Made by a program: the position numbers and the translations under genes. From the UHGV virus genome UHGV-0107442: 34,578 nt of DNA. One strand, given 5' to 3'. Position 1 is the first letter of the stretch. The number at the start of each line of letters is the position of its first letter. Source of the DNA: a virus. Shown here one piece after another: positions 691 through 28,863 of the stretch. The notes below the pieces were generated by a model. It saw nothing but the letters and a program-made list of their open reading frames with translations. It was not told the DNA's origin and searched no databases.

Positions 691-1743
691 TTACGGGGTA
701 ATGCCAACCGCTGCCGCCACTTTGTCGCCACTTGGCAGCGTTGCCAGAGGATTGAAACGGAGCGCCGTTTCCAGATGATCTGGTGCCAGATGTGCGTAAC
801 GCATAGTCATTTTTATATCGTGGTGTCCGAGAATTTTTTGTAAGGCGAGAATGTTTCCACCCGACATCATGAAGTGCGCCGCAAATGTATGGCGCAGAAC
901 GTGTGTGAGTTGACCGCGAGGGAGCACGATAGACGTTTTTTCCATCACGGATAAAAATTGAAAATAGCAGTCTGTAAAGAAATTGAACCCATCAAGCGCC
1001 ATGATCTCTTCGTAAAGCTCTTTACTGATAGGGATGCTTCTGTTTTTCTTCCCCTTCGTTCTGACAAAGGTAATTCGGTATTTGGTCACCTGTGAGCGGG
1101 TAAGATTTACGGCTTCACGCCAGCGTGCGCCTGTGCTTAAGCATATCTTAACTACCAGTGCCAGAATCGGGTCCTGACGTTTACAATCAGCCAGCAATTC
1201 AACAATCTGCTCATGGGTAAGCCATGCCATCTCTTTTTCTGCGATGGTGAATTTTCGCATGTTCTCCAGTGGGTTCGGATACGACCATTCGCCCAGGCGG
1301 GATAGTTCGCTAAAAACACTACTAAGATAGCTTTGCTCCAGGTTAATAGTGACCGGGCTTGCTCCTTTTTTCCATTTCTCGCTGAAGTAGATCTCACCCG
1401 TCAGGCGTTTATCTCGATAGTGGGCAAACATTTTAGATGTGAGATCGGTTGCAAGGGGATTGCCCAGAGCGTCAACCATCAACAGCAATTTGTCATAGAC
1501 ATGCTGCCCAGCGGTTAGAGCTTTACCATGTAGTTTGAACCATAGCTCAACTACGTCTTTCAGTGTTCGACGATCCACTGATTCACCCAGCCAGGGCTTT
1601 GCTTCGGTTTCTTCCATCGTGTGGCGCTCAAAAGCCAGAGCTTCGCCTTTGGTGGCGAATTGTTTACGCACACGACGCCCACTACGTCCGGCGGGGTAAC
1701 ATTCGCAAAGCCATTTCCCTGTGGTGAGTTTTCGTACTGCCAT
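691..1743 (-). CDS. int: Phage tyrosine integrase (P2/186 Int family)
   Basis: ORF 691..1899 (-) in the track; first ATG at 1743 is preceded by GGAGGG at 8-nt spacing on the minus strand. C-terminal catalytic region contains HVLRHTFA and MTMRYAHL (R-H-R-Y type). 350 aa versus about 337 aa for P2 Int. Confidence 0.9.
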   Translation of the reverse strand: MAVRKLTTGKWLCECYPAGRSGRRVRKQFATKGEALAFERHTMEETEAKPWLGESVDRRTLKDVVELWFKLHGKALTAGQHVYDKLLLMVDALGNPLATDLTSKMFAHYRDKRLTGEIYFSEKWKKGASPVTINLEQSYLSSVFSELSRLGEWSYPNPLENMRKFTIAEKEMAWLTHEQIVELLADCKRQDPILALVVKICLSTGARWREAVNLTRSQVTKYRITFVRTKGKKNRSIPISKELYEEIMALDGFNFFTDCYFQFLSVMEKTSIVLPRGQLTHVLRHTFAAHFMMSGGNILALQKILGHHDIKMTMRYAHLAPDHLETALRFNPLATLPSGDKVAAAVGITP

Positions 1744-1931
1744 AAAAAATGCCCTCCAGTAGAGAGCATTTTTACTGTATGTATAACCAGTGTCAATGTA
1801 TGAAATCCTACGACCATACATCTCACTGAAGCCATAATGAAGTTGGCTATTCTTTTTGCTATGTGAGCATGTAACTTTTGCGGTTAACCTGCGGCTCATT
1901 TTTATTTTAGACGCAGATATAAAAGCAAAAG

Positions 1932-2123
1932 TTATCGTGAGTTTTTAGTACAGATTTTTTTGGATTTACTAATAGTTCCATCATTGCAAACGAATTTGCC
2001 ATCTGAGGTACAGTGAGAAACACCTCCCTTTTTCCCTGAGCAGGGATAATTTCTAGCATAGGTAGTTAGTGGGTTTAATAACAAAGAACATGACAAAACC
2101 ACAAAAAATACCTTACCAAGCAT
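1932..2123 (-). CDS. Small secreted cysteine-rich protein (63 aa) between cI and int; candidate lysogen-expressed moron
   Basis: ATG at 2123 (-) with a strong GGGAGGAA SD 5 nt upstream. Hydrophobic N-terminus [23 protein letters not shown], then a mature part with 5 Cys and many Lys/Gly. AT-rich relative to the flanks; 15 bp downstream of the cI stop on the same strand. Confidence 0.5.
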
Positions 2124-2138
2124 AGTTTCCTCCCGGTA

Positions 2139-2708
2139 CTATTTAACATACTTGACTGTTAAACTTATAATTTTACCAATTATTTCAATGTCTTCTATCT
2201 TGCATTCGAAGGCTCTGTTTCCACCCTCGACGAAGATTCTTCCACCGGGTAAACGAGTAATGTCACGGATCGTTATTTCGCCATCAATACTTATTACCCA
2301 TTTACCATCACGTATATCATCAAATTCTTTATCACAAATAAATTCAGAATTGTTATCTGTGATGACAAAAGGTTTTTTTAACGTAGAGGGTAGAAATTCC
2401 TTATCAAAAATATAAAAACCGTCTTTCTGCAATGCTCCATCAGACAATAAATATTTTTCTACTTCTATAGTATTTGTATTTGCTGATGCTTGCTTTGAAC
2501 CATGCCCTGTTGTTAGCCAATTAAGCGAGGTGCCCGTTTCAAGGGCGCACTGGATTACCCAATCTGCTGGAAAAATATCACGCATATAGCGCGTTGCCAT
2601 GGTGCTCTTAGAAACACCTAAATGATCACAGAGAGCCTGACGGGTACCGAACCCATATGCTTCAACTAAACGTTCTATGGCTTTCTTACCGCCGCTATTG
2701 AAATCCAC
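2139..2708 (-). CDS. cI: Phage 186-type CI immunity repressor
   Basis: ORF 2139..2795 (-) in the track, but 2795 is GTG and the stretch 2709..2795 holds a sigma70-like promoter. GTG at 2708 (V30, SD GGAGGA upstream) gives 189 aa, close to 186 CI (192 aa). Similarity to 186 CI as remembered: EAYGF...HTH...CALETG...NWLTTG. Start uncertain between 2708 and 2795. Confidence 0.75.
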   Translation of the reverse strand: MDFNSGGKKAIERLVEAYGFGTRQALCDHLGVSKSTMATRYMRDIFPADWVIQCALETGTSLNWLTTGHGSKQASANTNTIEVEKYLLSDGALQKDGFYIFDKEFLPSTLKKPFVITDNNSEFICDKEFDDIRDGKWVISIDGEITIRDITRLPGGRIFVEGGNRAFECKIEDIEIIGKIISLTVKYVK

Positions 2709-2735
2709 AAGTCCTCCAAAGAAATCCAAAATTCG

Positions 2736-2764
2736 TTGACAGATTCCAAAAGCGATCTTAAAGT
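2736..2764 (+). promoter_or_regulatory. Candidate rightward lytic promoter (pR-like) in the cI-apl switch region
   Basis: TTGACA (2736..2741), 17-bp spacer, TAAAGT (2759..2764), reading toward apl (ATG 2854). The lysogenic promoter and CI operators should lie in 2709..2853 but were not resolved. Confidence 0.4.
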
Positions 2765-2853
2765 TGAACCAGAAGTGTTCTTTTGGAGCCTTCACTACTA
2801 ATCACGACAAACAACGGCTCGCCACAAGCCATATCTAGAAGGAATGTTGCCTT

Positions 2854-3057
2854 ATGACACCTAACATTTCAATTACTCTGAATACACCACATGTCACAAT
2901 CGAACGTTATAGCGAACTGACTGGCCTTTCTATTGATACGATTAACGACATGTTGGCTGATGGCCGACTACCTCGTCATCGTCTTCGTAAAGACAAAAAA
3001 CGTGAAAAGGTAATGATTAACCTGGCTGCTCTGACTGTTGATGCTTTGTCTGCTTAA
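2854..3057 (+). CDS. apl: Apl/Cox-like small DNA-binding protein (excisionase / lysogenic-promoter repressor)
   Basis: 67-aa ORF, first gene rightward of the switch, divergent from cI; position and size match 186 apl / P2 cox. ATG 2854 with AAGGA 10 nt upstream. Confidence 0.65.
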
Positions 3058-3067
3058 TAGACGTCTA

Positions 3068-3105
3068 TTTTCGCAATAAGACGCTGAGTTCGATTTTGCG
3101 ATAAG
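3068..3105. promoter_or_regulatory. Repeat pair between apl and cII (TTTTCGCAATAAG / TTTTGCGATAAG; inverted core TCGCAA...TTGCGA); candidate CII-type activator site for an establishment promoter
   Basis: Read directly. Direct near-repeats about 26 bp apart with an embedded inverted hexamer pair (3071..3076 and 3096..3101). In 186 the CII-dependent promoter pE lies in this relative position. Speculative. Confidence 0.25.
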
Positions 3106-3121
3106 TTCGGAGTTGAAAACC

Positions 3122-3631
3122 ATGTTTGATTACCAAGTTTCCAAACATCCACATTTTGATGAAGCCTGTCGTGCATTTGCATTGCGCCACAACTTGGTGC
3201 AACTGGCAGAACGTGCAGGTATGAATGTGCAGATTCTGCGGAACAAGCTGAATCCAGCTCAACCTCATTTATTAACCGCACCAGAAATTTGGTTGCTTAC
3301 TGATCTGACAGAAGACTCAACACTGGTAGATGGTTTTCTGGCACAGATTCACTGCCTGCCATGTGTGCCGATTAATGAGGTGGCAAAAGAGAAACTGCCA
3401 CATTACGTCATGAGTGCAACCGCAGAGATCGGGCGTGTTGCTGCAGGTGCGGTATCTGGCGATGTAAAAACCAGTGCAGGTCGTCGTGATGCCATCAGCA
3501 GCATTAACTCTGTAACACGACTGATGGCGCTGGCTGCTGTTTCATTGCAGGCCCGTTTACAGGCTAACCCTGCGATGGCGAGTGCGGTTGATACCGTAAC
3601 TGGCCTCGGTGCTTCATTCGGTTTGCTGTGA
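3122..3631 (+). CDS. cII: Phage 186-type CII lysogeny-establishment activator
   Basis: ORF 3113..3631 begins with TTG; ATG at 3122 gives 169 aa, the same length as 186 CII. Strong remembered similarity ([19 protein letters not shown]...NKLNP...[25 protein letters not shown]...). Confidence 0.85.
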
Positions 3632-8937: not shown

Positions 8938-8982
8938 CTAGCTAATCCTGAATGTGGGTTAGTGGAAATTACAAGGAAATAT

Positions 8983-10164
8983 ATGAAACTGACTGAGCTA
9001 ACTATAAACGGTATCGGGGGGATAAAGTCCCTGTACGTAAAATTTAGGCCTGACATGAATATTATATGTGGGCCTAACGGAGTTGGAAAATCCACACTCT
9101 TGCTTGCTGCCTCCTTTCCTTTTCTTCATGGATACACTAATAGAATAAAACGCAATGTCACTTCTGAAACAGGAAGTGTTAGTCTAATAATAGAAGATAA
9201 TTCTGTTAACTTTAATTCAGTATTAGATGTTAACGTTCATTTGCCTACAGAAACAATTCACAACTTTAATAATAACGGATTTGATAAGAGGAAACTAATA
9301 AAATTTGAAATATTACGTAACTTTGATTATAAACATCTTGAGGCGTTGAATGCAGATAAATCACTATCCGATGATGCTGTTTCGCAACAGATTAATTTAG
9401 GTGTCAATTTACATGATATCAAGGATTGGTTTGCTAAGAGGGATTTGTTTGAAAAAGTAGATAATGGTTACGGTCCTAATACGATAAAAAATATACATCT
9501 TGCAAGGGAGTGTATATCAATTTTAAACCCTCAGTTTTCTTACAATCGCGTCGATCCTAAATCTTACGATATTTTTGTAAATACCCCGACCGGGGTAATA
9601 TGGTATGAATATCTGTCCTCGGGATTCAAATCATGTATGAGTCTCCTTCTCGGTATTATTAAAGAGATCGAGCTTCGTTATCCGGAGAAAGATATTTACG
9701 CCCAAGAATTTGATGGAGTGATTCTTATCGATGAAATTGAGCTTCATTTGCATCCTGAGTGGCAGGCAAGAATCACTGAAGCCCTTACGACAACATTTCC
9801 ATCAGCACAATTTATTGTCACAACTCACAGCCCACATGTAGTACAGAATGCAAAACCACATCAGATCATTGCGTTAGTACCAGATAATGATGGCACAGTG
9901 AGAGTAAAAGAACTTCCTGAAAATGGCTTGGGTTATTCTGCCTGGACAGTTGAAGAGGTTTTGTTAGATGTAATGGGGATGGAAAGCACTCTCAGTAGAA
10001 AACTACAAGAACTACTTGATAATTTCGAACGTTTTGTTGATGAAGAAAATTTCGACAAGGCGAAAGAAATTTATGATTATTTGGATATGGCATTGCATCA
10101 AAACAGTATTCTTCGTAAATCTCTTAAAATAAGCCTGATGTCAATTCGAGAGAGAGAAGAGTAA
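8983..10164 (+). CDS. ABC/SMC-like P-loop ATPase, Septu PtuA-like
   Basis: ORF 8962..10164 begins with GTG; ATG at 8983 follows AGGAA. Walker A GPNGVGKST, Walker B VILIDEIELHLHP, then TTHSP. 393 aa; the stop abuts the start of the HNH gene. About 33% GC versus about 52% in the phage backbone. Confidence 0.8.
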   Translation: MKLTELTINGIGGIKSLYVKFRPDMNIICGPNGVGKSTLLLAASFPFLHGYTNRIKRNVTSETGSVSLIIEDNSVNFNSVLDVNVHLPTETIHNFNNNGFDKRKLIKFEILRNFDYKHLEALNADKSLSDDAVSQQINLGVNLHDIKDWFAKRDLFEKVDNGYGPNTIKNIHLARECISILNPQFSYNRVDPKSYDIFVNTPTGVIWYEYLSSGFKSCMSLLLGIIKEIELRYPEKDIYAQEFDGVILIDEIELHLHPEWQARITEALTTTFPSAQFIVTTHSPHVVQNAKPHQIIALVPDNDGTVRVKELPENGLGYSAWTVEEVLLDVMGMESTLSRKLQELLDNFERFVDEENFDKAKEIYDYLDMALHQNSILRKSLKISLMSIREREE

Positions 10165-10165
10165 A

Positions 10166-10912
10166 ATGATTAAGCTTGAACGGAACTTTATTCCTGATTT
10201 TTTTACTCGTGTTGATCTTCTATCTTTAACTCAGGAGTTTAAAGATAATGGAACATCTGTTTGGCATCATCCGGAAGTAAAATCGGCATGTCTAAAATTA
10301 AGTAATGGCAAATGTGCATTTTGTGAGGTCAAGCTTGAAGAGGCTAGCACCTATAATGAAATTGAGCATTTTAAGGATAAAAAAAATTTCCCTGATGATG
10401 TTATTAGATGGGAAAATCTCCTTCCTTCATGCCGTCACTGTAATGGTTCAAAACAACGCCATAATGTTGTACTCAATCCTATAATAAATCCATGCAACGA
10501 TTTACCGTCAGAACACCTTTATATGATAGGGTATCGTATTAAAGGTAAAACTGATTTAGGTAAAACAACAGTGGATGTTTTAAACTTTAATCACAGGGAG
10601 CACAAGTTTATACCGCGTTGTAAAGCAGGGGAACTTATAGATAGCAGTATTGATGACGCAATAGAAAAACTTAATTGGTTTAATGAGAATCCAAGTACTA
10701 GACGTAAAAACATTCTTATGAATCTAGTCGAGGCAATATTAGGTGAGTGTCAGAAAACATCTCCCTTTTCTGCAGTATCAGCAACAATGCTTCATCGTTC
10801 AGTCGAATATTCTTATCTGAAAGAAACCATGCAGATGCAAGGATTATGGTCAGATTATATGCAGGAACTTCATGATGAATCTTTGAGCCTGACGTTACCG
10901 TCAATTCGCTAG
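10166..10912 (+). CDS. HNH endonuclease, Septu PtuB-like
   Basis: 248 aa with CAFCE...EIEHFKDKKNFPDDVIRWENLLPSCRHCNGSK (CxxC...H...N...CxxC HNH core). ATG 10166 is 1 nt after the ATPase stop. Confidence 0.8.
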   Translation: MIKLERNFIPDFFTRVDLLSLTQEFKDNGTSVWHHPEVKSACLKLSNGKCAFCEVKLEEASTYNEIEHFKDKKNFPDDVIRWENLLPSCRHCNGSKQRHNVVLNPIINPCNDLPSEHLYMIGYRIKGKTDLGKTTVDVLNFNHREHKFIPRCKAGELIDSSIDDAIEKLNWFNENPSTRRKNILMNLVEAILGECQKTSPFSAVSATMLHRSVEYSYLKETMQMQGLWSDYMQELHDESLSLTLPSIR

Positions 10913-11284: not shown

Positions 11285-11378
11285 AACTCATAAATCCTAG
11301 ATTATTAGTGGATTTATCTCATTGAAATGTGCACTATTCCCAGCATTGAGTTGTACCAGATGTCTTTATGGAGGGACT

Positions 11379-13145
11379 GTGGCTTTTGTAACTGATATTC
11401 GGCTTGAAGATAATGCTATTGCTGCACCTGCGACAGCACAGGTTATGGCTCAGAGGCTAGGATCTGTATTACGTAAGAGATATGAAGAATTCATCCATAA
11501 AAGAGAGTGTGCACCAGGCCAAGCAGACTATGATGTAAAAATGGCTAGCAGGGCTTTAGCTGCATTCACTATGTATCAGTTAGGATGTGTGGATGATAAG
11601 TATGCAGGGGAGTCTGTATGTGATAGTAGTGAAGATGGTGGTATAGATGGAATAGCAATCAACCATAACGAAAAAATCGTTGTTGTTGTTCAATCAAAAT
11701 TTCACCAATCGGGAAACGGCACTTGGACAAGAGCCGATTTTATGTGTTTTAAGGATGCTTGTGAGAAGCTACAAAGTGAAAGATACGAATTATTTGATTC
11801 CATATTGCAAAATAAAAGCGGGGAAATAAGTGCGGCTTTAAGTAGTTTTGAATACAAGTTCATCTTTGCGATGGCGCATACAGGTAAAAAAGGTGCTGCA
11901 GAGGAAATATTAAATGATATGCGGGAATGGCAATATCAATTAAACGCTGCAGCTTTTACACCTGAGGATGAGCCTAAAGAGAACTGGGGATTTCAGGTTC
12001 ATTTAATATCCTCTGAAGATATGATGCATTGGTTACAGAATGGCTCTCGAAATCAAATTGATCTTAACAGGGTTGAAATTGAGCGTTTTGGATTTTTGAA
12101 TGAACCATATCAAGCTTTTTACGGGGCTATTAGTGGTGATCAAGTTGCAGAATGGTGGGAAGAGCATGGTGCTCGATTATTTACAAAAAACATAAGGAAT
12201 ATGCTTGGTAAAACAGAAGTGAATGAGGAAATAAAAAAGACAGCTATAGATAATCCTGATATGTTTTGGTTTTATAATAATGGGATTACTGTACTGGTTA
12301 AGGAGGTTGTTCCTCATAGACGAAACGCAGCTCCTAATATAGAGAGAGGGATTTTTGATTTTCGTGATGTAAGTGTCATTAATGGTGCACAAACAGTCAG
12401 TAGTATTGGCGCATGTAAAGATGCGCTTGGTGAAAACATATATAGACTCAAAGTGCCAGCCAGATTCATTGTTATAGATGATGATACTGATAATTTAACT
12501 GCAAATGCGATTACAAAAGCTAACAATTTCCAAAATAGAGTATTGGGAAGAGATTTTGCGTCGCAGCAGGCAGATCAACATAGATTGGCAAGGGAGTTAG
12601 TGCTTGAAGGATATCAATATCAGTTACTAAGAACAGATGAAGATCATTCACAGACAAATACGAAAGTCATTGACTTGGATGAGGCGCTCAATGCACTCGC
12701 ATGTTTAAGTAAAAATAATACGGTTGTATCGACACTAAAATCAAATCGCGGTAGGTTTTTTGAAAATTTTGAAGGCTCTCTATATAAAACTATTTTCAAT
12801 CCAAGATTAAGTGGTTTAAAACTTATCAATACTGTTCTACATTTTAGAGTTATAGATAAGTTGATCGGTAAAACATTACTATCAGTAGATAAAACTACCC
12901 ATAGTCGCAAGCATTTAATTATTACGCATGGTAATAGATACTATGCGTCTGTGCTATTGAGCAACGTTTCTGGGATACATAATAGCTCAGAAATTCTTGT
13001 TCCAGATGAAAAAAATCTTTCAGAAGAATTAAGTGCATTAATTCAACGTGCTGAAGAGTACATTGAAGATAATTACCCGAATGCCTATCCGGCAAGATTT
13101 TTTGCAAATCCAACGAAAATACAAGAGTTATACGATAATGTTTAA
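11379..13145 (+). CDS. AIPR-family (abortive-infection phage-resistance) protein with an N-terminal PD-(D/E)xK-like nuclease motif
   Basis: ORF 11322..13145 begins with TTG. Start uncertain: GTG 11379 (GGAGGG 3 nt upstream) or ATG 11445. N-terminal DSSEDGGIDGIAI...VVVVQSKF resembles Mrr/restriction-endonuclease-like D...QxK. Central WFYNNGITVLV...VINGAQT matches the AIPR hallmark as remembered. AT-rich. Confidence 0.7.
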   Translation: MAFVTDIRLEDNAIAAPATAQVMAQRLGSVLRKRYEEFIHKRECAPGQADYDVKMASRALAAFTMYQLGCVDDKYAGESVCDSSEDGGIDGIAINHNEKIVVVVQSKFHQSGNGTWTRADFMCFKDACEKLQSERYELFDSILQNKSGEISAALSSFEYKFIFAMAHTGKKGAAEEILNDMREWQYQLNAAAFTPEDEPKENWGFQVHLISSEDMMHWLQNGSRNQIDLNRVEIERFGFLNEPYQAFYGAISGDQVAEWWEEHGARLFTKNIRNMLGKTEVNEEIKKTAIDNPDMFWFYNNGITVLVKEVVPHRRNAAPNIERGIFDFRDVSVINGAQTVSSIGACKDALGENIYRLKVPARFIVIDDDTDNLTANAITKANNFQNRVLGRDFASQQADQHRLARELVLEGYQYQLLRTDEDHSQTNTKVIDLDEALNALACLSKNNTVVSTLKSNRGRFFENFEGSLYKTIFNPRLSGLKLINTVLHFRVIDKLIGKTLLSVDKTTHSRKHLIITHGNRYYASVLLSNVSGIHNSSEILVPDEKNLSEELSALIQRAEEYIEDNYPNAYPARFFANPTKIQELYDNV

Positions 13146-22920: not shown

Positions 22921-23815
22921 CCTTTCGCAGTTGCCTGCACCGCAGATTGTGGATGTGCCGGACTTTGAGACGCTGCTTGCCGAACGCAAGGCAGAATTTG
23001 TGGCGCTTCATCCGAAAGATGAGCAGGAAGCAGTGATCCGCACGCTGGAACTGGAATCTGAACCCGCCACTAAATTGTTGCAGGAGAACGCTTACCGTGA
23101 GTTGCTTCTGCGCCAGCGCATTAACGAAGCCGCGCAGGCGGTGATGGTGGCTTACGCGATGGGCGGCGATCTTGACCAGCTCGCTGCCAACTACAACGTG
23201 ACACGCCTGACGGTGACGCCTGCTGATAATGATGCTGTGCCGCCCGTTGCAGCTGTGATGGAAAGCGATGAAGCGTTGCGCCTGCGTGTGCCTGCAGCCT
23301 TTGAAGGGCTTTCTGTTGCGGGGCCAACTGCAGCTTATGAATTTCATGCCCGAAGCGCCGACGGTCGGGTGGCGGATGCCAGTGCAACCAGCCCGGCACC
23401 TGCAGAGGTGGTGCTGACTGTCCTTAGCCGCGAAGGCGATGGAACTGCAGAAAAAGACCTGCTGGACGTGGTGGAAAAAGCTCTGAACAGTGAGAACGTC
23501 CGCCCGGTGGCTGACCGTCTTACGGTTCGCAGCGCAGAAATCATCCCGTATCGCGTGGAAGCCACCATTTTTCTCTATCCTGGACCGGAAGCAGAGCCGG
23601 TAATGGCAGCGGCAAAAGCCAGCCTGCAGAAGTACATCGCCAGTCAGACGCGTCTTGGTCGGGATATTCGCCGTAGCGCCATCTTTGCCGCCCTGCATGT
23701 TGAGGGGGTGCAGCGTGTGGAGCTGGCTTCTCCTCTGGCGGATGTGGTCCTGAACAAAACACAGGCGGCATCATGTACGCAGTGGAGCGTAACCAACGGA
23801 GGAACGGATGAATAG
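22907..23815 (+). CDS. J: Baseplate assembly protein (P2 gpJ family)
   Basis: ORF 22868..23815 in the track; ATG at 22907 follows CAGGAG. 302 aa, the same as P2 J. Confidence 0.85.
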   Translation: MAVIDLSQLPAPQIVDVPDFETLLAERKAEFVALHPKDEQEAVIRTLELESEPATKLLQENAYRELLLRQRINEAAQAVMVAYAMGGDLDQLAANYNVTRLTVTPADNDAVPPVAAVMESDEALRLRVPAAFEGLSVAGPTAAYEFHARSADGRVADASATSPAPAEVVLTVLSREGDGTAEKDLLDVVEKALNSENVRPVADRLTVRSAEIIPYRVEATIFLYPGPEAEPVMAAAKASLQKYIASQTRLGRDIRRSAIFAALHVEGVQRVELASPLADVVLNKTQAASCTQWSVTNGGTDE

Positions 23816-24413
23816 TCTGCTGCCACCGGGTTCAACACCACTGGAGCGCCGACTGGCGCAAACCTGCAGCGGGATTTCTGATCTGCAGGTGCCGCTTCGT
23901 GACTTGTGGAATCCGGCAACCTGTCCGGTCAGTTTCCTGCCTTATCTCGCCTGGGCGTTCTCTGTGGATCGCTGGGACGAGGGCTGGACAGAAAGCGTCA
24001 AGCGCCAGGTGGTGAAGGATGCTTTTTATATTCATCAGCATAAAGGGACCACCAGTGCCGTGCGGCGGGTGGTGGAGCCGTTCGGATTCCTGATCCGCAT
24101 TATTGAGTGGTGGCAGACCGGAGAAACACCGGGCACGTTTCGCCTGGATATCGGCGTGCAGGACCAGGGCATCACTGAAGATACCTATCTGGAACTTGAG
24201 CGACTGATAAGCGATGCCAAACCATGTAGCCGCCACATGATCGGCATGTCCATCAATCTGCAGACCAGCGGCCCGCATTGGGTGGGAGCCGCCAGCTATC
24301 TTGGCGAAGAAATCACGATCTATCCGTATATCAACGAAACGATTATTTCCGGTGGCACCGCGCATGAAGGCGGGGCGGTCCATGTTATTGACACAATGAG
24401 AGTGAATCCATGA
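23808..24413 (+). CDS. I: Baseplate / tail protein (P2 gpI family)
   Basis: 201 aa; overlaps both neighbours. Confidence 0.85.
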   Translation: MNSLLPPGSTPLERRLAQTCSGISDLQVPLRDLWNPATCPVSFLPYLAWAFSVDRWDEGWTESVKRQVVKDAFYIHQHKGTTSAVRRVVEPFGFLIRIIEWWQTGETPGTFRLDIGVQDQGITEDTYLELERLISDAKPCSRHMIGMSINLQTSGPHWVGAASYLGEEITIYPYINETIISGGTAHEGGAVHVIDTMRVNP

Positions 24414-25801
24414 GCACAAAATTTTATACCCTGCTGACGGATATTGGCGCGGCGAAACTTGCCAGCGCCGCCGCGCTCGGTGTGCCGCTAAAAATTACCC
24501 ATATGGCGGTGGGCGATGGCGGTGGAGTATTGCCAACGCCGGACGCAAAGCAGACGGCACTGGTAAATGAGAAACGCCGGGCTGCGCTGAATATGCTTTA
24601 TATCGACCCGCAGAACAGCAGCCAGATTATTGCCGAACAGGTGATCCCTGAAAACGAGGGCGGTTGGTGGATACGTGAAGTGGGCTTGTTTGATGAGTCC
24701 GGGGCATTGATTGCCGTGGGCAACTGCCCGGAAAGCTATAAGCCGCAACTGGCTGAAGGTAGCGGGCGCACTCAGACCGTGCGCATGGTGCTGATTACCA
24801 GCAGCACGGACAATATCACCCTGAAAATCGACCCTGCTGTAGTGCTGGCAACCCGCAAGTATGTGGATGACAAGGCACTGGAGCTGAAGGTGTACGCGGA
24901 TGATCAGATGGCAAAACATCTTGCCGCACCGGACCCGCATTCACAGTACGCGCCAAAAGCCAGCCCGACATTTACCGGAACCCCCAAAGCGCCAACGCCA
25001 GCGGCGGGGAATAATACCACGCAGGTTGCGACCACTGCGTTTGTACAGGCGGCACTGACGGCCCTTATTAATGGTGCGCCAGCCACGCTGGACACGCTGA
25101 AAGAAATAGCCGCAGCCATTAACAATGATCCGAATTTCAGTACCACCATTAACAATGCGCTGGCACTAAAAGCACCGTTGTCGAGTCCGGCACTCACCGG
25201 AACGCCAACAGCCCCCACGGCGGCGCAGTCGATCAACAATACACAGATTGCCACTACGGCTTTTGTGAAATCGGCGATTGCAGGAATGGTGGGTTCTGCA
25301 CCTGCTGCACTGGATACACTGAACGAACTGGCGGCGGCACTGGGGAATGATCCGAACTTTGCCACGACAATGCTTAATGCGCTGGCAGGTAAACAACCGC
25401 TGGACAATACGCTTACCAATTTGAGTGGAAAGGATGTAGCTGGTCTTCTCACATACCTTGGTTTGGGAGAAGCCAGATATGTCATTCAGCGAGGAGCTAA
25501 TGTCAATGGTGCATGGATACGCTGGTCAGATGGTGCAATAGAAGTATTTGGAACTGGTGGTTCCAATGATAATGGGCTGGCTAAAGTCGTTTATCCAATT
25601 GCACTACCTAAGCTTTCACGTTTTATCAGCATAGCGGAAAGAATAAGAACAGATTACGAGGCCACACCTAATAACGTTCACGTTTCAATGATCGTGGATG
25701 ACCAGGTCAGTAATACAGGTTTTTATGTCCGCTGCCAGATGTACGACGGAAGACCATCAACAAGTGCTTTTTCCTGGAGAGTTTATTGTGCGCCTGTTTA
25801 A
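24410..25801 (+). CDS. H: Tail fibre protein (P2 gpH-like constant N-terminal region plus variable C-terminus in the current orientation)
   Basis: 463 aa. Two tandem copies of a roughly 70-aa repeat (...TGTPKAPTPAAGNNTTQVATTAFVQAAL...DTLKEIAAAINNDPNF... and ...TGTPTAPTAAQSINNTQIATTAFVKSAI...DTLNELAAALGNDPNF...). The inversion crossover site lies inside the gene at 25458..25478 (encodes GLGEAR). Confidence 0.85.
   Translation: MSTKFYTLLTDIGAAKLASAAALGVPLKITHMAVGDGGGVLPTPDAKQTALVNEKRRAALNMLYIDPQNSSQIIAEQVIPENEGGWWIREVGLFDESGALIAVGNCPESYKPQLAEGSGRTQTVRMVLITSSTDNITLKIDPAVVLATRKYVDDKALELKVYADDQMAKHLAAPDPHSQYAPKASPTFTGTPKAPTPAAGNNTTQVATTAFVQAALTALINGAPATLDTLKEIAAAINNDPNFSTTINNALALKAPLSSPALTGTPTAPTAAQSINNTQIATTAFVKSAIAGMVGSAPAALDTLNELAAALGNDPNFATTMLNALAGKQPLDNTLTNLSGKDVAGLLTYLGLGEARYVIQRGANVNGAWIRWSDGAIEVFGTGGSNDNGLAKVVYPIALPKLSRFISIAERIRTDYEATPNNVHVSMIVDDQVSNTGFYVRCQMYDGRPSTSAFSWRVYCAPV
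25458..25478 (+). repeat. Left inversion crossover site, inside H
   Basis: Identical to the reverse complement of 26894..26914. Confidence 0.7.
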
Positions 25802-25985
25802 TCCTGTTACTTTGACTGAAGTAATCCCCGGTCTTCATGACGTGACCGGGGCTGTGGAATTACCAGAAGATAACTGGTTTTTTACTGCATCTGAAATCCC
25901 TGAAGGAATGGAAATATCTGTTAACGAGAAGGGCGAACCCATTCTGATTGAGATTAAACCATATCAGGTGGAACTGGCCAGATAA
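25788..25985 (+). CDS. Small ORF after the active fibre C-terminus; putative tail-fibre assembly/chaperone protein (65 aa)
   Basis: GTG 25788 follows GGAGA at 7-nt spacing and overlaps the H stop. Function assigned by position (equivalent to U of Mu-type invertible segments); no motif recognised. Confidence 0.4.
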   Translation: MRLFNPVTLTEVIPGLHDVTGAVELPEDNWFFTASEIPEGMEISVNEKGEPILIEIKPYQVELAR

Positions 25986-26220
25986 CCCCCGGCGCGGTGC
26001 TGGTATCTGCTTCCATCACCGCGTCGATATTACCAACATCATATTCAGTCATTTCCGGTTCCGGTGGTGCTATAAACTCTCCGTCAGAATAGAACCAACC
26101 GACGCCTGCATCTATATGATCAATATTTATAATTTCGCAGTTAGAGAATAAATCACCCTCTCCATCCCAGATAATAATATTTTTCACCACGCCATGTTCA
26201 ATCAGAGCAAAATTACTCAT
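25954..26220 (-). CDS. Small ORF of the alternative cassette; putative tail-fibre assembly/chaperone protein (88 aa)
   Basis: ATG at 26220 (-) overlaps the stop of the alternative fibre C-terminus (ATGA). Convergent with the ORF at 25788..25985, as expected for an invertible segment. Confidence 0.5.
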   Translation of the reverse strand: MSNFALIEHGVVKNIIIWDGEGDLFSNCEIINIDHIDAGVGWFYSDGEFIAPPEPEMTEYDVGNIDAVMEADTSTAPGVIWPVPPDMV

Positions 26221-26954
26221 CAGGCATACTCCTCAACAATAACTATTCCCGGGGCACCGTCACCTCCCGATTGAGCCTCACTTCCAGCAGGTGCGCAGGC
26301 TCCGCCTCCGCCAGAACCAAAGCCCTCAGCTTTACCACCACCACGTCCGCTGAATGATGAAGAACTTGCACCACCTATACCGCCTGAACCTAATGGTGTA
26401 TCCCCCCCGTTACCCCCTGCTACAGCTTTAACAGAGATAACCATTGCTCCTGGTGTTTTTGCACTACAGCGAAATGCTCTTAGTACAGTACCGGACGATG
26501 TCGGACTGGCACCCCGTGAAATACCCTGAATATATGATGTGTTTGCAGATGCTCCCCCCGCGCCACCGCCTGTACCACCAGGTGCAGTTATCATGGAACC
26601 GAAATAAGTTGTGCCACCTTCACTACCTGAATTTCTTCCGGCTCCCCCCCCTTTACCTGCAGCACCGATAATAACGTTGACTTCGAAATCATTATCAACC
26701 TCGAAAAATGCTTCAATAAATGCGCCGCTCAATCCAGCTCCGGCTGTTGCCTGCTGATTTTCTGTTGTTTCAGGAACCCCACCGCCGCCGCCACCGCCAC
26801 CAGAGGCAATGACCCTTATCTTTTTTGTCCCTGGTGTTGGGATATATTTTCCAGAGCTTTTAAAAATATTCGTGTTTAACAAACGACCAGAGAATCTGGC
26901 TTCTCCCAAACCAACGTTTAAGAAAATGCAGAGGTAACAGCTAACTGGCATCAT
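26220..26954 (-). CDS. Alternative, glycine-rich tail-fibre C-terminal cassette (silent in this orientation)
   Basis: The minus-strand ORF encodes VGLGEARF at the crossover site (26894..26914), in frame with the same GLGEAR encoded in H. Inversion would fuse about 230 aa of Gly-rich sequence (runs such as GGGGGGGG, GGTGGGAGG) to the H constant part. The first 14 codons before the crossover are probably not part of any real protein. Confidence 0.65.
   Translation of the reverse strand: MMPVSCYLCIFLNVGLGEARFSGRLLNTNIFKSSGKYIPTPGTKKIRVIASGGGGGGGGVPETTENQQATAGAGLSGAFIEAFFEVDNDFEVNVIIGAAGKGGGAGRNSGSEGGTTYFGSMITAPGGTGGGAGGASANTSYIQGISRGASPTSSGTVLRAFRCSAKTPGAMVISVKAVAGGNGGDTPLGSGGIGGASSSSFSGRGGGKAEGFGSGGGGACAPAGSEAQSGGDGAPGIVIVEEYA
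26901..26926. repeat. Right inversion crossover site (gix/hix/cix-like)
   Basis: TTCTCCCAAACC-AA-CGTTTAAGAAAA: two 12-bp half-sites around a 2-bp core, resembling remembered hix/gix sites (for example TTCTTGAAAACC-AA-GGTTTTTGATAA). Confidence 0.6.
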
Positions 26955-26981
26955 CTCCGGTTTTTATTCAGGGGGATGATC

Positions 26982-27548
26982 ATGCTTATTGGCTATGTAC
27001 GCGTGTCAACAAATGACCAGAACACCGATTTGCAACGTAATGCACTGAATTGCGCGGGATGTGAGCAGATTTTTGAGGACAAAATCAGTGGCACTAAGTC
27101 CGACAGACCGGGGCTGAAAAAACTACTCAGGACACTATCGGCAGGAGACACGCTGGTTGTCTGGAAGCTGGACAGGTTGGGGCGCAGTATGCGGCATCTT
27201 GTTACGCTGATAGAAGAGTTGCGCCAGCGTGGTGTGAATTTCGGAAGCCTGACTGACAGTATTGATACCAGTACCCCAATGGGCCGTTTCTTTTTTCATG
27301 TCATGGGTGCCCTGGCTGAAATGGAACGCGAACTGATAGTTGAACGTACCAGGGCAGGGCTGGCTGCAGCTCGTGCCAAAGGCAGAGTAGGTGGACGCCG
27401 TCCTAAGTTGACCACCGAACAGTGGGCACAGATTGGGCGTTTACTCGAGGCCGGAGAATCAAGACAGCGTATTGCACTGATTTTTGATGTAGGCGTTTCT
27501 ACCATTTATAGAAAATTTCCGGCAAATAAGATCAATGAATCCCCCTGA
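26982..27548 (+). CDS. Serine recombinase, DNA invertase (Hin/Gin/Cin/Pin family)
   Basis: MLIGYVRVSTNDQNTDLQ... with the catalytic-serine motif (VRVSTNDQ) and a C-terminal HTH. ATG 26982 follows AGGGGG; an alternative ATG at 26976 is in frame. Confidence 0.85.
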   Translation: MLIGYVRVSTNDQNTDLQRNALNCAGCEQIFEDKISGTKSDRPGLKKLLRTLSAGDTLVVWKLDRLGRSMRHLVTLIEELRQRGVNFGSLTDSIDTSTPMGRFFFHVMGALAEMERELIVERTRAGLAAARAKGRVGGRRPKLTTEQWAQIGRLLEAGESRQRIALIFDVGVSTIYRKFPANKINESP

Positions 27549-27596
27549 ATCAGCATTATGTTGATTATCCCTGCAAGCAGACAAATACCGTTATTT

Positions 27597-27614
27597 TGTG
27601 TGAATAACGACACA
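27597..27614 (+). promoter_or_regulatory. TGT-N12-ACA late-promoter activator site upstream of the sheath gene
   Basis: TGT (27597..27599), GTGAATAACGAC, ACA (27612..27614), 77 bp upstream of the ATG at 27691. Confidence 0.5.
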
Positions 27615-27690
27615 ACTGCGCTTAGCTGTTTGTCAGGCACAATCACTTCAACATAGGGCGAAGCCTAATCCAATCAGGAGGTTCGCCACT

Positions 27691-28863
27691 ATGGCTCAGG
27701 ATTACCACCACGGGGTGCGCGTTGTTGAAGTCAACGAAGGCACCCGATCTATTACCACGGTGAGCACCGCCATCGTGGGTATGGTCTGCACGGGCGATGA
27801 TGCCGATGCAAAAATGTTTCCTCTTAATAAACCCGTGCTGATCACTGATGTGCTGACTGCCAGCGGTAAAGCGGGTGAGTCAGGTACTCTGGCCCGTTCG
27901 CTGGATGCCATCGCTGACCAGGCAAAACCCGTGACCATTGTTGTGCGTGTGCCGCAGGGTGAAACGGAAGACGAAACCACGACCAATATCATCGGCGCAG
28001 TGACTGCTGAAGGTAAAAAAACAGGTATGAAAGCCCTGTTATCTGCCCAGTCACAGCTCGGCGTTAAACCGCGCATTCTCGGCGTGCCAGGCCACGACAC
28101 CAAGGCGGTAGCTACTGAGTTGCTGAGCGTGGCGCAAAGCCTGCGTGGATTTGCTTACCTGTCAGCGTATGGCTGCAAGACAGTGCAGGAGGCGATCACT
28201 TACCGCGAAAACTTCAGCCAGCGCGAAGGGATGCTGATCTGGCCTGACTTTACTGGCTGGGACACGGTGCTGAATGCCGAAGCAACGGCATATGCCACCG
28301 CCCGTGCGCTTGGTCTGCGCGCCAAAATTGACGAGCAGACCGGATGGCACAAAAGCCTGTCCAACGTGGGCGTGAACGGTGTCACCGGAATTTCTGCAGA
28401 TGTGTTCTGGGATCTGCAGGACCCGGCAACCGATGCAGGTCTGCTGAACCAGAACGACGTCACCACGCTTGTGCGTAAAGACGGTTTCCGCTTCTGGGGT
28501 TCCCGCTGCCTGAGTGATGACCCGCTCTTTGCCTTCGAAAACTACACCCGCACGGCGCAGGTGCTGATGGACACGATGGCAGAAGCACACATGTGGGCGG
28601 TGGATAAACCGCTTAACCCGTCGCTGGCCCGCGACATTATCGAAGGTATCCGCGCCAAAATGCGCAGCCTGGTCAGTCAGGGCTATCTCATTGGTGGTGA
28701 TTGCTGGCTGGATGAGTCGGTGAACGACAAAGACACGCTGAAAGCCGGAAAACTCACCATCGACTACGACTACACGCCAGTGCCGCCACTTGAAAACCTG
28801 ATGCTGCGTCAGCGCATCACCGATCAGTACCTGGTGAATTTCGCCAGCCAGGTCAGCGCGTAA
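27691..28863 (+). CDS. FI: Contractile tail sheath protein (P2 gpFI family)
   Basis: 390 aa (P2 FI is 396 aa); ATG follows CAGGAGG. Confidence 0.9.

Follow-up and report, generated by a model that had tools for sequence, protein, structure and literature searches.

Invertase-driven switching of tail fibres has been known since the work on Mu, P1 and e14, and it has also been reported in P2-like prophages. In the G/Gin system of Mu, a constant fibre N-terminus is followed by two convergent cassettes, each consisting of a tip and an assembly gene, with the invertase gene just outside one of the crossover sites and an enhancer at the 5' end of that gene. Mu phages in the G(+) and G(-) orientations have different host ranges, and in both the Gin and Hin systems the enhancer in the 5' part of the invertase gene is bound by Fis. 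The C/Cin region of P1 is a switch of like type. Among P2-like prophages, those of enteropathogenic Escherichia coli (EPEC) E2348/69 have been shown to invert from sequencing reads (PMC4272514), and a hotspot survey found invertases to be common at the Z/fun hotspot of P2 (bioRxiv 10.1101/2024.10.15.618418).

The locus described here lies in the viral genome UHGV-0107442, a stretch of 34,578 nucleotides that was analysed as a whole (the window). The entire 34.6-kb window is a complete P2-family prophage, encoding portal, terminase, capsid, lysis and tail genes. Between its fibre gene H and its sheath gene FI, it carries two convergent fibre-tip cassettes, two inverted crossover sites and a DNA invertase gene. 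This element is a Din-subfamily fibre switch of a known type, and only its particular pair of tips and their very short partner genes are mildly unusual. The best explanation of the locus, to which we assign a probability of roughly 0.87, is that this complete P2-family prophage has a tail-fibre switch of the Gin/Cin/Pin type, driven by its invertase and with two states.

In such a switch, invertase dimers would bind the two inverted 26-bp dyads and, together with host Fis, would most likely assemble on an enhancer in the 5' coding region of the invertase gene. Cleavage at the TT core dinucleotides, followed by rotation, would then invert the 1457 bp between the cores. With each flip, the constant 349-residue N-terminal part of H would be fused, in a conserved LGLGE frame, to either of two alternative C-terminal tips. 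In the orientation of the window, the fibre would end in a pyocin-foot/gp53-like tip (tip A), followed by a translationally coupled open reading frame (ORF) of 65 amino acids (aa), ORF65. In the other orientation, it would end in a tumour necrosis factor-like plus glycine-rich tip like Pam3 gp24 (tip B), followed by an 88-aa mini-Tfa, ORF88. A lysogen population would release two kinds of virion, which most likely recognize different receptors.

The P-segment of e14 shares much of this design. Its invertase PinE is 86% identical to that of the window, the inner half-sites and the TT core are identical, the crossover falls in an LGLGE frame of the fibre gene, and its convergent tip-plus-helper cassettes overlap at their 3' ends by about 30 nt. 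However, e14 is a defective lambdoid element with an StfP-like constant fibre part, whereas the window is a P2-family myovirus prophage whose constant part is like H of P2. The cassettes of e14 in E. coli K-12 (StfP/TfaP and StfE/TfaE) also differ and have full-length Tfa proteins of 137-200 aa. Mu has a TC core in gix, a segment of about 3 kb, Tfa proteins of 175-177 aa and tip domains unrelated to those of the window. The Hin/hix system of Salmonella relies on a recombinase of this subfamily that acts at 26-bp hix-type dyads, and its invertase gene contains an enhancer to which Fis binds (PMC3798978). Hin, however, flips a promoter and sits inside its own invertible segment, whereas the flip in the window would exchange coding 3' ends and the invertase gene lies outside.

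Orientation of the segment in related genomes

A megablast search of 5,426 complete E. coli genomes, with positions 24900-27700 of the window as the query, gave full-length matches in the orientation of the window in nine genomes, with a best identity of 99.9%. A further class of genomes matched at query positions 559-2018 only (window 25458-26917) and on the opposite strand, as flipped genomes do. The flipped sequence was then built in silico and searched again, giving full-length matches in 15 complete genomes (best identity 99.6%). The initial annotation had predicted inversion and had named a single orientation, ever, as the outcome that would speak against it; both orientations were found, in these two sets of genomes, between strains UC4224 and UC4315 and within the assembly of E. 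coli 214-4.

UC4224 is a cheese isolate, and UC4315 and UC4316 are its lambda-Red deletion mutants at the unrelated hes-sisA locus (PMC13340028). The segment is flipped in UC4224 and UC4316 and has the orientation of the window in UC4315. Between UC4224 and UC4315, the 1457 bp are exactly reverse-complemented with no mismatch, and the flanks of 2058 bp and 2286 bp are identical (5.8 kb in all). Only one invertase locus is detectable in UC4224 by megablast with this query (H75), which makes the adjacent invertase the obvious catalyst. Both orientations also occur in viral contigs that carry other cassette pairs beside the same invertase (L037 against L023 and L054; L070 against L057 and L060).

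The record of E. coli 214-4 (NZ_CP025840.1) contains an untrimmed circularization overlap of about 35 kb, at 1-35,071 and 5,103,639-5,138,709. Its two copies of the locus (L013 and L014) are identical over 6.8 kb, save that the segment is flipped; the best explanation is that the culture used for sequencing contained a mixed population. A tandem double lysogen carrying the prophage once in either state was ruled out because the duplicated 35 kb include host pot/ybj genes, reach both ends of the record and have frameshifted genes at those ends.

The probability that the orientation differences between public genomes are assembly artefacts is close to negligible. Assemblers can mis-join inverted repeats, and the 214-4 record does hold one artefact in its untrimmed overlap. 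However, a 21-bp repeat is far shorter than any read and leaves no ambiguity to an assembler, and the 24 complete genomes are independent, come from different laboratories and platforms and split nine to 15. In addition, the breakpoints lie exactly at the core dinucleotides with zero other differences, and in the overlap of 214-4 itself, a single locus most plausibly appears as two consensus versions taken from a mixed read population.

Crossover sites and their reading frame

The 21-nt sequence TTGGTTTGGGAGAAGCCAGAT has two exact copies in the window, at 25458-25478 (+) and 26894-26914 (-), and no match to it, with up to three mismatches allowed, was found in 100 dinucleotide-preserving shuffles. 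A repeat finder ranked this pair above all other inverted repeats in the region. The left copy falls within H (24410-25801, 463 codons) and the right copy near the start, and thus at the far end, of a reverse ORF (26220-26954, 244 codons, -). The initial annotation was right in placing perfect 21-bp inverted repeats in the fibre gene and at the far end of the reverse cassette, and in reading GLGEAR in frame from both, the full translation being LGLGEAR.

The repeat extends imperfectly outward to 25446 and 26926 (33 nt, 85%), so the functional unit is a 26-bp dyad with the crossover at the outermost two bases of the perfect repeat. The perfect 21 bp are made up of the 2-bp core, the inner half-site and seven more bases of shared coding sequence. 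Reference sequences were fetched for the Mu G segment with gin and for the e14 P segment with pinE of E. coli K-12, and the sites of the window can be aligned to those of e14 (pix) and Mu (gix) column by column (Table 1), the right site having one mismatch to e14 pixR. The cores, at 25458-25459 and 26913-26914, are where the strands are expected to be exchanged. The repeats had been proposed as recombination substrates, and this is upheld by their pix/gix-type alignment and by relatives that invert exactly between the cores. The site frame L-G-L-(G/Q)-E is common to the window, e14 and Mu; thus, crossover in frame is characteristic of the family, not a matter of chance.

A pattern search of the window, allowing up to three mismatches, found no third crossover site, the extra match being the other strand of the left dyad. 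A shufflon was ruled out, as the window holds two sites only; in this it differs from one of the EPEC prophages, which is a multi-site shufflon.

For a wider comparison, 80 loci with close relatives of the invertase were taken from viral contigs, and the invertase gene could be extracted from 76 of them. The left site of the window is the commonest left site in the related contigs (18 of 51). The TT core is present in every left site (51 of 51) and in 124 of 124 sites overall. The right site starts 81 nt upstream of the invertase ATG in the window and in 65 of 73 related loci, and 80 nt upstream in eight.

Table 1. Features of the invertible fibre locus, reference crossover sites and other genes of the window
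Feature	Position	Strand	Remarks
Invertible segment, 1457 bp core to core	25458-26914		Exact reverse complement between relatives
Left 26-bp crossover site	25446-25471	+	TTCTCACATACC TT GGTTTGGGAGAA; core 25458-25459; inside H, encodes ...YLGLGE
Right 26-bp crossover site	26901-26926	-	TTTTCTTAAACG TT GGTTTGGGAGAA read on the - strand; core 26913-26914
H, constant N-terminal part, 349 codons	24410-25457	+	Retained in both orientations
Tip A, C-terminal 113 residues	25460-25801	+	Fibre end in the present orientation
ORF65, 65 aa	25788-25985	+	GTG start overlaps the last 14 nt of H
ORF88, 88 aa	25954-26220	-	ATG overlaps the stop codon of tip B; 3' end overlaps ORF65 by 32 nt
Tip B, about 230 aa, glycine-rich, silent	26220-26912	-	Fused to H after inversion
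DNA invertase, 188 aa	26982-27548	+	Gin/Pin/Cin/Hin-type serine recombinase
Candidate recombinational enhancer, 63 bp	27004-27066		Two Fis-consensus 15-mers; invertase codons 8-29
e14 pixL			CTCTCGAAAACC TT GGTTTGGGAGAA (outer half, core, inner half)
e14 pixR (reverse complement)			TTTTCATAAACG TT GGTTTGGGAGAA
Mu gix, both sites			TTATCCAAAACC TC GGTTTACAGGAA
Tail protein I (P2)	23808-24413		Precedes H
PtuA AAA ATPase	8962-10164	+	PADLOC PDLC00305, E = 1e-151
PtuB HNH nuclease	10166-10912	+	PDLC00342, E = 2e-95

Exchangeable fibre ends and their partner genes

Over its N-terminal 150 residues, H matches PF12571, a tail-collar fibre domain of phages (E = 3e-65), and further matches are to phrog_327 and to other families of tail fibres. 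In the present orientation, the fibre is an open 463-aa protein that is annotated in RefSeq genomes. A computed flip joins H to tip B in frame and gives an uninterrupted fibre of 580 aa, a protein that UC4224 has under the accession WP_198460249.1. The reading frame of the silent cassette is unbroken, and its identity to copies that are expressed is 98%. The exchange that had been foreseen, of the present C-terminus and its small ORF for a glycine-rich C-terminus and a different small ORF, is thus reproduced by the computed fusion.

Tip A was modelled with AlphaFold2, and its best matches in the PDB were the fibre foot of R2/R1 pyocins (6CT8, 6CXB, 6CL5 and 6CL6; template modelling (TM) scores of about 0.5-0.6) and gp53 of AP22 (4MTM). 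It also matches phrog_2557 (E = 5e-15). Its predicted fold resembles a small beta-sandwich of the pyocin-foot/gp53 kind, in agreement with a Pfam match to Gp53-like_C that falls below the cut-off. Homology of tip A to the silent tip of Escherichia phage 500465-1 was ruled out, the similarity being limited to the LGLGEA junction.

Tip B contains a Gly_rich_2 domain (PF21722, 40.1 bits against a cut-off of 24.3) and matches the tail-fibre family phrog_6202 (E = 5e-55). Its AlphaFold2 model is confident, with a predicted local distance difference test score (pLDDT) of 89.9 and a predicted TM score of 0.86. The best PDB matches are the fibre protein gp24 of cyanophage Pam3 (7YPX and 7YFW; TM scores of 0.61-0.63), tail-tip proteins of mycobacteriophage Bxb1 and the glycine-rich domains of ALK/LTK. 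The glycine-rich domain of Pam3 gp24 has been described as receptor-recognizing (PMC9608196). The two tips thus have unrelated predicted folds, each matching known receptor-binding fibre ends, and the prophage may alternate between two receptor specificities.

It is quite unlikely that the flip is real but selected for some role other than phage host range, such as a tailocin-like particle of benefit to the host or regulation through the small ORFs. Co-option of prophage switches by their hosts has been raised before (PMC4272514), and tip A resembles the foot of an R-pyocin fibre. However, the full set of P2-type virion and replication genes indicates a phage and not a tailocin, and both tips have the folds of receptor-binding fibre ends.

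ORF65 has 141 homologues of 57-90 aa across Enterobacterales, all of them unnamed. It matches phrog_5400 (E = 2e-22) and, weakly, the tail-fibre-assembly family phrog_188 (E = 0.004), and it follows tip A in six of the six viral loci that carry this tip. Since its match covers positions 1-65 of the 145-position phrog_5400, a truncated Tfa was considered; this was ruled out by the consistent length of the 141 homologues, and the lack of similarity to the 147-aa Tfa of 500465-1 also speaks against it. ORF88, on the other hand, ends in 22 aa that carry the Tfa C-terminal motif IDAV..DTSTAPxVIWP (68% to e14 TfaE). Its N-terminal 56 aa match phrog_14370 and a gene of phage Goslar annotated as tail fibre assembly (53%). 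An ORF88-like gene follows a glycine-rich tip in each of the five viral loci that have one, including cases in which protein identity is as low as 34% and 45%. Neither ORF65 nor ORF88 matched the Tfa models of Pfam and NCBIfam, and no name at family level came from NCBIfam for either the small ORFs or the parts of the fibre.

From these matches and their tight linkage to the tips, ORF65 and ORF88 may be tip-specific helpers (assembly factors). That they form a new minimal class of such helpers, with ORF88 as a reduced Tfa and ORF65 as an unrelated helper or virion accessory for gp53/pyocin-foot-like tips, is a tentative proposal and on balance somewhat doubtful. The Pam3 fibre requires a chaperone that has an N-terminal beta-sandwich of 55 residues and a helical trimerization domain (PMC9608196). 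Under the proposal, ORF88 may consist of a fibre-binding domain of about 55 residues and the DTSTAPxVIWP motif, without most of the helical trimerization domain of Pam3 gp25 or Mu Tfa.

In several genomes (L001, L002, L004 and L010), the Prokaryotic Genome Annotation Pipeline (PGAP) calls the silent tips as free-standing genes, under the names 'glycine-rich domain-containing protein', 'phage tail protein' or, at 127 aa, 'hypothetical protein'. The first 13 or so codons of these annotated tips (MMPVSCYLCIFLNV...) are no more than a translation of the spacer that separates the right crossover site from the invertase gene. As free-standing genes, the tips are annotation artefacts of the off state.

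The cassettes behave as modules. In phage 500465-1 (Peduoviridae, genus Wadgaonvirus), the crossover sites are the same, a DNA invertase is annotated between the fibre and sheath genes, and the flanks match the window at 99.7% identity as far as the inner edge of each 26-bp site; the cassettes between them are unrelated. Phage 500465-1 has StfE-like and other tips with Tfa proteins of 147-200 aa, unlike the window, in which gp53/pyocin-foot-like and glycine-rich tips both have unusually short partner ORFs. The cassette pair of the window is in turn found beside pinE in an e14-like element in ECE228 and ECE218, at 94.7% identity. In ECE228 (L009, NZ_CP196312.1, locus 1215-3581), the two cassettes lie between an StfP N-terminus and pinE. 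PGAP labels this stfP an incomplete pseudogene, and the likely cause is that a flip-dependent fusion is not part of its gene model.

In partial matches, at 82% or 69% query coverage, only one of the two cassettes differs, which indicates that either can be replaced singly. The junction of about 45 bp at the overlap of ORF65 and ORF88 (window 25954-26022) is nearly identical to the tfaP/tfaE junction of e14 (3018-3085 of L006). It is a plausible anchor for single-cassette swaps by homologous recombination, which fits the genomes with only one cassette different. Such swapping agrees with the long-known mosaic evolution of fibre genes in inversion regions. Among 51 segments measured (range 1102-1986 bp), only one is shorter than the 1457 bp of the window, which owes its compactness to the very small size of its helper ORFs.

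The invertase, its probable catalytic role and the prophage setting

The invertase contains the domains PF00239 (residues 5-137, E = 1e-52) and HTH_7 (residues 140-183, E = 2e-15), with the catalytic Ser9 within YVRVSTNDQ. Apart from its likeness to PinE, it is 75% identical to Mu Gin (structure 3UJ3), and the initial assignment of a Hin/Gin-family recombinase gene directly after the cassettes is thereby confirmed. Its segment QIGRLLEAG corresponds to QAGRLL of Gin and PinE, in which RL corresponds, by homology mapping, to Arg154 and Leu155 of Hin. These two residues, in helix 1 of Hin's DNA-binding domain, are Fis-contact residues (PMC3798978).

The known enhancer has 15-bp core Fis sites at both ends (PMC3798978, which lists Johnson and Simon, 1985, for the Hin enhancer of about 60 bp and Kahmann, 1985, for the Mu site within gin). 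In the window, two 15-mers in the 5' part of the invertase gene, at 27004-27018 and 27052-27066, fit the Fis consensus KNNYRNNWNNYRNNM, and their centres are 48 bp apart. A spacing of 48 bp between the Fis sites of the Hin and Gin enhancers was reportedly described by Johnson and colleagues in 1987. When the aligned 5' regions were scanned, consensus matches were found at identical alignment columns in the invertase gene of the window, pinE and gin, and both 15-mers fit the consensus in all 76 related invertase genes. Further, pairwise synonymous divergence along the gene has its minimum in codons 1-29 (0.14-0.18, against 0.25 elsewhere), and the codons beneath the proximal Fis site are nearly invariant. 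These data are suggestive only, and 27004-27066 is a candidate Fis-dependent enhancer.

The regions upstream of pinE and gin share the conserved block TGGCATCAT..G.TTTTA. The invertase ORF of the window is bracketed precisely by a perfect inverted repeat of 12 nt, ATTCAGGGGGAT at 26966-26977 and ATCCCCCTGAAT at 27539-27550; this repeat is not conserved in e14 and may be due to chance.

Several points weigh against a switch driven by this invertase. Inversion was demonstrated in relatives of 97.5-99.9% identity and not in the exact molecule of the window. A promoter scan called no sigma-70-like promoter upstream of the invertase, and a weak terminator-like hairpin (26943-26962, +) lies between the right crossover site and the invertase start. 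The Fis consensus is very degenerate, and the variants seen are transitions, which preserve it automatically; synonymous divergence falls only modestly, and constraints of other kinds often act on the 5' ends of genes. The model of tip A is of moderate confidence (pLDDT 79.7), its Pfam match to Gp53-like_C (E = 0.006) falls below the cut-off, and the argument for receptor alternation is one from folds. Finally, Din-family invertases (Gin, Cin, Pin and Hin) complement one another, and action in trans is thus possible.

The reliance on relatives and the missing promoter would both suit a frozen relic, in which the repeats and the invertase persist by descent, the segment no longer inverts and the silent cassette is decaying. 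Such a relic is very improbable, since the invertase reading frame is unbroken and retains the catalytic serine, the two sites agree perfectly across their inner halves and common core, and the silent cassette shows the integrity noted above. Moreover, a prophage of 97.5% identity flipped within a few laboratory passages, and alleles 99.6-99.9% identical to the window are found in both states.

Cross-complementation in turn bears on the identity of the catalyst. The sites of the window are nearly identical to e14 pix, and some genomes have several related loci (up to six places per genome), so that a host Din invertase such as e14 PinE or a Mu-like Gin might act in trans; RecA might also act on the 21-bp repeats. 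Inversion by either is very unlikely. The single megablast-detectable locus of UC4224 belongs to a strain in which the flip was seen, and the fixed distance of 80-81 nt from right site to invertase in 73 loci points to a co-inherited unit. As to RecA, 21 bp would be below the usual length for efficient recombination, and the breakpoints lie at canonical invertase sites. A fibre switch driven by the adjacent invertase is thus the preferred reading.

The setting is that of a P2-type prophage. A relative that is 99.9% identical over the query region adjoins ybjL in a Norwegian wild-bird isolate and has an annotated replication endonuclease. The phages vB_EcoM-813R9 and Klebsiella phage 4LV2017 are about 95% identical to the window across most of its length, and phage records label the corresponding gene as a DNA invertase. 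In P2 proper, the stretch between H and the sheath gene (which starts at 27691 in the window) holds G, the V-operon terminator and fun(Z), according to the P2 record. The fun(Z) gene of P2 lies between the V operon and the pF promoter, where the window has the invertase, and the position of G is occupied by the invertible cassettes, in keeping with the original suggestion that the usual G gene is replaced.

A perfect TGT-N12-ACA dyad, TGTGTGAATAACGACACA, was found by eye at 27597-27614, with its centre 85 bp upstream of the sheath ATG. In P2, FI is preceded at a distance of 83 bp by the annotated activator-binding site of the late promoter pF. The dyad therefore probably marks the F operon's Ogr-dependent late promoter, which would have stayed intact on the downstream side of the inserted invertase. 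The regions upstream of FI in the window and around pF in P2 gave no useful alignment, and only the spacing of the dyad is comparable.

Elsewhere in the window, a Septu defence pair (ptuA and ptuB, 8962-10912, +) lies between the replication gene and the portal gene, at the classical cargo hotspot of P2. It is adjoined by a gene for an AIPR/AbiU-like abortive-infection protein of 607 aa (11322-13145, +; PDLC02357, E = 7e-25), labelled as an AIPR family protein in the 99.9% identical relative.

An understanding of this locus adds no new principle to fibre switching, and its practical value is modest but real. Differences in orientation between isogenic genomes, such as those of UC4224 and its mutants, are spontaneous phase variation and not off-target edits or misassemblies. 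Similarly, ORFs labelled as separate tail, glycine-rich or hypothetical proteins are alternative ends of a single fibre gene. If the proposal of minimal helpers is true, the 1457-bp segment would show that very little is required for two different receptor-binding tips to be folded and mounted. The locus also offers a compact natural pair of exchangeable receptor-binding modules within defined 26-bp sites, on which efforts to engineer the host range of P2-like phages or tailocins could draw.

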